A DNA stretch of 53,190 nt from assembly GCA_902522015.1 (NCBI GenBank), contig CABYTX010000004.1, forward strand, positions 1-53,190, written 5' to 3'. The notes beneath the pieces were generated by a model that saw only the letters and a list, made by a program, of their open reading frames with translations, searched no databases and had not been told where the DNA came from. Origin of the DNA: an uncultured Alphaproteobacteria bacterium. Lineage in GTDB: Bacteria > Pseudomonadota > Alphaproteobacteria > HIMB59 > GCA-002718135. Positions 15,613 through 15,812 of the stretch are shown piece after piece (position 1 is the stretch's first letter; every line of letters begins with the position of its first letter). Both the position numbers and the translations under genes were made by a program.

Positions 15613-15650
15613 GGTTAAATCATGCTCTAGTTATGAAATCTGCTTTTGAT

Positions 15651-15706
15651 GCGCGTTCCTTCAGCTAATGGCTTACTTCCGACCTATATATAATAGGTTG
15701 AACGAT
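15651..15706 (-). ncRNA. Glutamine riboswitch aptamer (glnA motif), copy 2
   Basis: AUCGUUC-A-ACCUAU(UAUAU)AUAGGU-CGGAAGUA-AGC(CAUUA)GCU-GAAG-GAACGCGC: P1 CGUUC/GAACG, P2, CGGAAGUA junction, AGUA/GAA E-loop, P3. Confidence 0.92.
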
Positions 15707-15719
15707 TTATAACTTTTGC

Positions 15720-15771
15720 ATGCGTTCCTTCGGCACAATGCCTACTTCCGACTCTAAATGAGTTGAACGAT
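15720..15771 (-). ncRNA. Glutamine riboswitch aptamer (glnA motif), copy 1
   Basis: AUCGUUC-A-ACUC(AUUUA)GAGU-CGGAAGUA-GGCA(UUG)UGCC-GAAG-GAACGCAU: same three-way junction, with compensatory P2/P3 changes relative to copy 2. Confidence 0.92.
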
Positions 15772-15812
15772 TATAGGTTAATTACTAGGTTTTATATAAA
15801 AGTAAAGAAAAA

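Follow-up and report, generated by a model that had tools for sequence, protein, structure and literature searches.

What do two glutamine aptamers in a row accomplish in front of a glutamine synthetase gene? The question is raised by a 53,190-nucleotide (nt) stretch of DNA from an uncultured alphaproteobacterium (contig CABYTX010000004.1 of assembly GCA_902522015.1; the whole stretch is called the window below), in which the spacer between glnB and glnA contains two imperfect direct repeats. The original prediction took these repeats for a tandem riboswitch with the fold of the glutamine-binding glnA RNA (glutamine-I), lying directly before glnA in an alphaproteobacterial genome, and this proved correct: the tandem element is a genuine glutamine-I riboswitch pair (glnA RNA, RF01739) in the 5' leader of the glnA messenger RNA. 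It is near-universal in one family of the order HIMB59, in which nearly every genome has two to four tandem pairs, in front of glnA, ammonium transporter (amt) and ATP-grasp genes. As aptamers, the two are unexceptional representatives of a well-known family. What may be new here is a platform that the two appear to share, made up of an invariant linker, an invariant block, a covarying hairpin and the ribosome-binding site (RBS) of the gene.

A scan of the whole window with Rfam cmscan (RF01739 gathering score, 35 bits) returned exactly two RF01739 matches, the number that had been expected, both on the minus strand; the only other Rfam matches were five transfer RNA (tRNA) genes. Aptamer 1 (15719-15771; 61.9 bits, E 2.4e-11) and aptamer 2 (15650-15706; 64.3 bits, E 5.3e-12) each span model positions 1-53 of 53, and the AUG of glnA lies 84 nt 3' of the pair on the same strand, where the shared strings and the differently paired P2 and P3 stems originally described for the repeats are all present. 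Aptamer 1 reads, from 15771 to 15719, AUCGUUCA-ACUC-AUUUA-GAGU-CGGAAGUA-GGCA-UUG-UGCC-GAAGGAACGC, and its helices are P1 CGUUC/GAACG, P2 ACUC/GAGU and P3 GGC/GCC. Aptamer 2, from 15706 to 15650, reads AUCGUUCA-ACCUAU-UAUAU-AUAGGU-CGGAAGUA-AGC-CAUU-AGCU-GAAGGAACGC, with P1 again CGUUC/GAACG, P2 ACCUA/UAGGU and P3 AGC/GCU. The joining strands of the P1/P2/P3 junction, AUCGUUCA, CGGAAGUA and GAAGGAACGC, occur in both copies and are invariant in the 91 distinct tandem sequences, drawn from all four gene contexts, on which our covariation analysis was performed. Both copies also contain the binding-site residues, namely the GG of the strand joining P2 to P3 (J2/3, CGGAAGUA) and the C after P1 (GAACG-C).

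Covariation, which had been claimed for the two copies of the window, holds in relatives too. The two aptamers have 15 P2/P3 pairs between them, 13 of which show both-sided changes, and 96.2% of the P2/P3 cells are paired, a figure that falls to 28-40% when the partners are slid by 1-3 columns. Cells with both-sided P2/P3 change number 235 versus 57 in shuffles, and 0 of 500 shuffles were as high, although the kinship of the sequences means that this shuffle count overstates the contrast. Both P1 helices are invariant and therefore uninformative on covariation. The identity of the aptamers follows from the two full-length matches, far over the cut-off, together with the compensatory changes in P2 and P3; binding of glutamine by both is predicted from their membership of RF01739.

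The distribution of the pair is sharply bounded. In a motif search, 72 of the 73 loci with a GlnA sharing 74% identity or more with that of the window had a pair of aptamers before glnA; in the 73rd, L046, the DNA extends just 111 nt upstream. None of the 7 loci at 64-67% identity had such a pair. Rfam returned two matches in each of eight diverse loci of the group (8/8), whereas the 7 distant loci and a further 2 from the sister family gave none. Among whole genomes, 77 of the 79 belonging to the family have matches, mostly in even numbers, compared with 0 of 71 in the sister family; across other alphaproteobacterial families, sampled at one genome per family, 1 of 150 had a match, and that was a single aptamer. 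Because glnB and glnA of the sister family are adjacent, with a spacer of 44 nt and no Rfam match (L133:1109-2907, in the complete genome G025), the riboswitch cassette separates the two families of the order. Farther afield, the genomes that carry the core in a pattern scan include, among the matches listed, at least many cyanobacteria, as well as SAR86, SAR116 and other marine proteobacterial genomes.

Outside the aptamers, alignments of leaders (28 diverse glnA leaders, and the 91 distinct tandems) reveal two stretches that are nearly invariant, whereas P2, P3 and a downstream hairpin vary. The first is the inter-aptamer linker, an 18-nt strand (CAUGC-AAAA-GUUAU-AAAU; 15705-15722, minus strand) that starts at the C after aptamer 1 P1, ends with AU before aptamer 2 P1, and is the proposed switching strand. 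Its consensus is CAUGC-AA(A)(A)-GUUAU-(W)AAAU, and CAUGC is invariant in 91 of 91 tandems. No terminator, Shine-Dalgarno (SD) sequence or start codon was seen in these 18 nt between the two P1 helices. The original prediction had drawn attention to a CAAAAG after both copies, and in the window both are indeed there. The first, however, is a piece of the invariant linker, and the second varies in relatives (CAUAAAAAG, CAUUUAAAG, CAUAAUG and others), so that the hexamer is not the conserved unit.

The second stretch is a 21-nt block, GAUUUCAUAACUAGAGCAUGA (15620-15640, minus strand), whose sequence complements the linker on the one hand and the start-codon region on the other. Leaders whose GlnA proteins are 74-100% identical show almost no variation in it; it lies about 10-16 nt 3' of aptamer 2 (10 nt in the window), its sequence being AUUUCAUAACUAGAGCAUGA in glnA leaders and AUUUCCAUAGCUAAGCAUGA in those of amt and the ATP-grasp gene. 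Between block and RBS stands the variable hairpin (GGGUA..GCU-GGAU-GGC..UACCC; 15590-15612, minus strand), after which comes UUUUGUUG. A hairpin is found at the same place in all leaders, lineage-specific in sequence yet self-complementary, with the SD and start codon next. The RBS of the window (15558-15577, minus strand) comprises the SD AAGGAG (15577-15572) and the AUG (15565-15563), and its UAG-A-UAUGAAAUU segment (15570-15558) is the part that pairs with the block. Two other roles for these elements were considered and set aside: a leader peptide initiated at the AUG that the block contains, whose short frames differ per lineage and which has GAG just 2 nt before that AUG; and a pairing of the CAAAAG after aptamer 2 with a CUUUUG after the hairpin, neither of which is kept in relatives.

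The same architecture recurs at other genes. The genome of the window has two more tandem RF01739 pairs, at G000:C3:52398-52521 and 54438-54560 (L007:3399-3522 and 5439-5561), both of them preceding ammonium transporter genes (Pfam Ammonium_transp, 328 and 324 bits); their linker is identical to that of the glnA leader and their block reads ..UUUCCAUAGCUAAGCAUGA. A fourth tandem pair, in the 96%-complete relative G041 (L121:1501-3055), precedes a gene for a circularly permuted ATP-grasp protein (CP_ATPgrasp_2, 496.9 bits). That leader also contains a possible upstream open reading frame (ORF) of about 20 codons between block and gene, the UGA of which overlaps the main AUG. In other marine alphaproteobacteria (L117 in G168, L154, L181 and L196), single aptamers stand before the same ATP-grasp gene family, and there the leaders run ..GUCUCUUUCC.. 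and then ..GAAAGAG..AUG, a plain anti-SD/SD pair. A single-amplified genome (SAG) labelled SAR116 cluster (L143) has a tandem before amt, with a GCAUGC linker start, a ..CUAAGCAUGA block end and no UUUC(C)AU, the explanation being either spread of the cassette across orders or a loosely applied label. Lastly, SAR86 and related Gammaproteobacteria (L176, L200, L207 and L214) have tandem and triple aptamers, and their tandems resemble that of the window in placing two RF01739-like cores in a row in streamlined marine bacteria. They differ from it in their linkers of 7-9 nt, in having neither the GCAUGC...GCAUGA pair nor the block, and in an RBS directly after aptamer 2, which in L176 and L200 is that of a small ORF; L207 and L214 have a longer leader between the last aptamer and a gene for a TonB-type receptor or a porin-like protein, so the downstream genes differ as well.

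How, then, might linker, block and RBS work together? Linker and block are complementary over CAUGC/GCAUG, GUUAU/AUAAC and AAAU/AUUU, and their duplex amounts to -15.0 kcal/mol, whereas 5000 26-mers drawn at random from the genome average -4.3, and 0.02% of them reach -15. The block has a second partner in the start-codon region. In the window, GAUUUCAUA-A-CUA pairs with UAG-A-UAUGAAAUU, AUG included, and does so in both the minimum-free-energy (MFE) and the centroid folds (15570-15558); the corresponding pairings in other genera are those of AUUUCAUAA with UUAUGAAAU and of GCAUG with a YRUG directly 5' of the SD. The glnA RBSs of these other genera combine an RUG immediately 5' of the SD with AUGAAAU at the start, and both elements match the block, while among 302 control RBSs of the window genome 39 have RUG before the SD, 5 have AUGAAAU and 0 have both. 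One glnA leader, L119, has a ..UUUCCAU.. block, with AUGGAGG at the SD instead. The full-length alternative folds are near iso-energetic, at about 2 kcal/mol apart (-44.1 versus -46.0 kcal/mol), and when the RBS is held single-stranded the MFE takes the linker-block helix, with aptamer 1 keeping its Rfam fold. In the amt leaders, the linker-block helix, as an outer helix around aptamer 2, is present in both MFE and centroid folds.

From these two complementarities we propose, with about even confidence for and against, that a single translational expression platform serves both aptamers and that through it glutamine turns glnA OFF. The parts of the platform would be the invariant 18-nt linker, the conserved 21-nt block, and the glnA RBS, kept near the block by the hairpin. 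At low glutamine, the linker would pair with the block to form an outer helix around aptamer 2, beginning at the C after aptamer 1 P1, and the start codon would be free for glnA to be translated. At high glutamine, each bound aptamer would take one end of the linker: aptamer 1 would require the C after its P1 for a ligand-dependent linchpin pair at the P1 base, and aptamer 2 would engage the nucleotides immediately 5' of its P1, at the same site. The block, once released, would pair with the start-codon region and translation would stop. This scheme draws on a review of P1 regulation, which describes for the aptamer class glutamine bound at the P1 base, a J2/3 that is disordered without ligand, and a G23 that inserts into P1 and pairs with C60 as a linchpin (PMC11477058). 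The equivalent C after aptamer 1 P1 is the first nucleotide of the CAUGC strand, and the linker end abuts aptamer 2 P1; ligand binding and the outer helix would for this reason be mutually exclusive, from which it would follow that glutamine frees the block, masks the start codon and turns glnA OFF.

An OFF logic had already been put forward in the original prediction. It is plausible, and the predicted platform speaks in its favor, but the original prediction overstated it. The set of genes concerned is a further reason for preferring it, since the regulon is one of nitrogen assimilation (glnA and two amt genes). The results for sigma-54 also fit. The sigma-54 DNA-binding domain (Sigma54_DBD, PF04552) was found in none of five genomes of the order that are 92-99% complete (G041, G044, G052, G025 and G026), in a search whose control was positive in 4 of 14 named genomes; proteins of the Sigma54_activat type, about 448 aa long, are present in these genomes. 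A sigma-54 promoter inside the block was likewise discarded, since inspection by eye gave no match to GG-N10-GC and the five related genomes gave no Sigma54_DBD hit. With rather less confidence than we attach to the shared platform, and somewhat short of an even chance, we suggest a more ambitious version: a dual-aptamer device with the linker as switching strand, which would be the first OFF-type glutamine-I riboswitch and the basis of an RNA-only regulon (glnA, two amt, ATP-grasp) replacing NtrC/sigma-54 control in an abundant marine alphaproteobacterial family for which no sigma-54 was found.

The same parts could in principle be wired with the opposite sign. Bound aptamers would then stack on and stabilize the linker-block helix, the block would be sequestered, and glutamine would turn glnA translation ON. 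There is precedent for such a sign, because the sole characterized glutamine-I riboswitch, that of gifB, is an ON switch, and Klahn 2018 states that the sign for glnA-linked copies is not known. Moreover, the MFE and centroid folds of the amt leaders show the outer helix plus aptamer 2 P1, which means that the two can coexist in the nearest-neighbor model. Yet a glutamine synthetase and two ammonium transporters induced by glutamine would be physiologically odd, and the first pair of the outer helix would use the very C that a bound aptamer 1 needs for its linchpin. We therefore regard an ON switch as quite unlikely.

Several observations weigh against a shared OFF platform of the kind proposed, beginning with the folding calculations themselves, in which the constraints that define the two states are assumptions. 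The bound state was mimicked by enforcing both P1 helices and leaving the linker unpaired, and the free state by enforcing CAUGC/GCAUG. The bound mimic itself favors the platform: in 72 of 75 distinct glnA leaders every base of the start codon is paired with the block, as against 29 of 375 with shuffled blocks, although the 75 leaders are close kin and do not amount to 72 independent tests. Also in its favor, the AUG has a mean unpaired probability of 0.02 in the bound mimic versus 0.73 with CAUGC/GCAUG enforced (in the window, 0.00 versus 0.87); counting against it, the unconstrained MFE of the window is already the OFF-like fold. Across the 91 tandems, no pair of the linker-block helix shows both-sided change. 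All 5 CAUGC/GCAUG pairs are invariant, which speaks neither for nor against the helix, and the other pairs change one-sidedly or break, part of the broken cells being due to the amt rows, which are displaced by one column in the alignment. Compensation between variant linkers (GUUUG, GUUAG) and blocks with an AC insertion was looked for in a swap matrix and none was found; the variant linkers pair better with the standard block. Block-RBS energy was also abandoned as a stand-alone statistic, the window duplex of -10.2 kcal/mol being matched by 10.6% of the 302 control RBSs, and for glnA a median of 83 of 298 controls reach the same level once the segments are lengthened. In the amt leaders, pairing between the RBS and the 23-nt block alone is no stronger than in controls (-7.7). 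When the segment is extended to tail plus block, amt1 improves, and 0 to 24 of 298 controls reach energies as low; amt2 has no RBS masking in the constrained fold. The SAR116-labelled amt leader, which has the linker and the ..CUAAGCAUGA part without the UUUC(C)AU part, suggests that the universal feature may be the outer helix and not the masking of the RBS.

The absence of covariation in the outer helix and the unremarkable block-RBS energies would also suit aptamers that act independently, in a 'pseudo-cooperative' fashion, with linker and block kept as a scaffold that orients the aptamers, much as the leader-linker contact does in tandem glycine riboswitches, as a protein or RNase site, or through recent spread of a cassette. 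Glutamine doublets are in fact filed as pseudo-cooperative, with multiple platforms, in Sherlock 2022, and the same linker and block before four different genes and in a SAR116-labelled genome look like a cassette that is mobile or was recently duplicated. Against independence stands the spacing of the aptamers: with 18 nt between the P1 helices and no terminator or RBS there, aptamer 1 would have no platform of its own. Recency is equally hard to reconcile with P2, P3 and hairpins that have much diverged around a fixed linker and block, a pattern that argues for selection, and the glnA RBS has unusual features that match the block. Independent aptamers are accordingly an unlikely explanation.

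Conservation and folding, then, are what suggest a shared linker-block-RBS platform and an OFF sign. In outline, such a platform would resemble the tandem glycine riboswitch, which likewise has two aptamers of the same class, a short conserved linker in an outside helix, and a single platform following. Fold and ligand are different, and so is the proposed part played by the linker: in the tandem glycine riboswitch, contact between leader and linker supports binding, whereas the linker of the window is proposed to compete with it.

Regulation might alternatively fall on transcription, if the hairpin at 15612-15590 and UUUUGUUG formed a glutamine-dependent intrinsic terminator, or if the leader exposed a Rho site. 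The window and several relatives have a U-rich stretch after the hairpin, of as many as 7 consecutive U, but there is no U-tract in several other relatives or in both amt leaders. With 5+3 pairs and a large internal loop, it was not called terminator-like, and a search for an intrinsic terminator in the leader ended with none called by the scan and U-tracts that are not conserved. Its sequence varies while the block is fixed, which leaves no conserved anti-terminator pairing. RNA evidence bears on the same point. It comes from contigs of four marine metatranscriptome runs of four studies, whose depth is one figure per contig and cannot rank the parts of a gene; only shared ends and bridging contigs were used. 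The leader is contiguous with glnA in RNA: X3 record 17 spans 15200-15772 and X2 record 12 spans 15330-15666, both passing through the variable hairpin, and the whole leader and glnA are joined in one 710-nt contig. These contigs cross the hairpin into glnA, with which partial termination would still be compatible. Taken together, transcriptional control appears very unlikely.

The same contigs offer a view of where the transcript begins. High-depth contigs of 3 runs from 3 studies (X2, X3 and X6) end at 15772, with no loose end. Summed contig depth drops across 15777/15778 in all four runs (330 to 6.8, 117 to 4.1, 33 to 8.0 and 1135 to 15.3, or 4- to 74-fold), and low-depth contigs extend into glnB. 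The shared ends mark a putative transcription start at 15772 on the minus strand, 1 nt before aptamer 1. That glnA starts there, from its own promoter, is a weak hint only, because contigs break at strain variation and their depth is one figure per contig. A putative promoter (15779-15807, minus strand) would consist of a -35 element CTTTAC (15807-15802), a 17-nt spacer and a -10 element TAATTA (15784-15779). In the alignment of 28 diverse leaders CTTTAC is conserved, as is the TA of the -10, and the spacing suits an RNA 5' end at 15772; a consensus sigma-70 scan did not call this promoter. Upstream, the sole terminator-like site in 15450-16250 is a hairpin of 7 pairs with a loop of 3 (15815-15831, minus strand), which lies over the glnB stop codon, is followed by a T-run (tail AATTTTTCTT), and is kept in relatives in the alignment; the mean in shuffles was 0.1. 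Since this hairpin closes glnB and the contig ends of three studies, stopping at 15772, hint at a separate glnA start, the 'core operon' to which the original prediction had assigned the riboswitch is doubtful.

The genes around the riboswitch run along the minus strand from an aminotransferase (17308-16151) through glnB (16154-15813), a 247-nt spacer and glnA (15565-14135) to a GyrB/ParE-like gene. The glnB ORF, the 5' neighbor of the riboswitch, encodes a PII protein of 113 aa (Pfam P-II, 115 bits; cut-off 25), and that of glnA a type I glutamine synthetase of 476 aa (Gln-synt_C, 463.8 bits; Gln-synt_N, 103.8 bits). The five tRNA genes of the window lie on the plus strand, at 5712-5784, 17362-17435, 17505-17586, 23695-23767 and 23774-23847, and two of them are immediately upstream of the aminotransferase-glnB-glnA block.

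Which organism is this? The source assembly is about 1.03 Mb and 66% complete. The GlnA of the window matches those of many single-cell genomes titled 'uncultured Alphaproteobacteria bacterium AG-...' at 97-100% identity; it is 99% identical to that of the SAG 'Pelagibacteraceae bacterium AG-337-I02', and 74-77% identical to those of the bins HIMB59-LRMED-201 and MarineAlpha5. AG-337-I02 is given in PMC8692485 as a genus of the order HIMB59, alias the AEGEAN-169 group or SAR11 clade V. The host is thus a streamlined marine alphaproteobacterium of the HIMB59 / AEGEAN-169 group, near genus AG-337-I02. The original prediction saw in this locus a host for the environmental examples of the motif. 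A HIMB59 family can indeed now be placed among the carriers, but the claim went too far, as copies from SAR86, Pelagibacterales and pelagiphages are already in print and tandems occur in SAR86- and SAR116-labelled genomes.

The motif itself has a longer history. Weinberg 2010 describes it from cyanobacteria and marine metagenomes, in association with genes for PII, glutamine synthetase, GOGAT and amt and in some cases in tandem, and Klahn 2018 reports the gifB ON switch; the summary of this literature in the original prediction agrees with both. RF01739 is also in print for SAR86, an island of a Pelagibacterales metagenome-assembled genome, pelagiphages and an OM43 phage. Sherlock 2022 counts 157 glutamine doublets and 4 triplets, and a 2025 survey mentions 'glutamine in Pseudomonadota' in passing. 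In the main text of the AEGEAN-169 genomics paper, neither riboswitches nor glutamine are mentioned. We found no publication whose main text names HIMB59/AEGEAN-169 with a glutamine riboswitch, although host tables (Klahn 2018, Sherlock 2022, PMC12452182) may list the lineage. Tandem arrangements of the glutamine riboswitch upstream of glnA and amt have been published for marine metagenomes since 2010. Naming the host adds modestly to this.

Comparison with known systems makes the particulars of this leader clearer. It has the aptamer, the gene associations (glutamine synthetase, with PII nearby, and amt) and the tandem habit of the marine-metagenome glnA RNA motif (RF01739), the metagenomic examples of which probably include this very lineage; unlike them, it is known from assembled genomes of one family, with the full leader readable. 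With the type 1 riboswitch of Synechocystis gifB (IF17), as described in Klahn 2018, it has in common the aptamer class, the glutamine ligand and, ultimately, control of glutamine synthetase activity. There, however, a single aptamer turns ON an inhibitor protein of glutamine synthetase, whereas the window has two aptamers on the mRNA of the synthetase itself, with OFF as the predicted sign. Candidatus Pelagibacter ubique provides a further tandem from a streamlined marine alphaproteobacterium, SAM-II/SAM-V, in which the linker influences one domain; it combines two aptamer classes and two mechanisms, and responds to another ligand (PMC11508383).

For one large group, a family of the HIMB59 / AEGEAN-169 order, these results answer the question of who carries the marine glnA-linked copies, whose taxonomic affiliation and effect are given as not known in Klahn 2018. 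A complete leader with named nucleotides—CAUGC/GCAUG, the block-AUG pairing, and the C after each P1—makes the effect of glutamine on glnA testable. If the OFF model is true, one aptamer class would be wired both ways, ON for the cyanobacterial inhibitor of glutamine synthetase and OFF for the synthetase, and the tandem form would have a mechanical reason in the shared linker. The finding bears, in this way, on how nitrogen is sensed in very small marine genomes that have PII and in which no sigma-54 was found.

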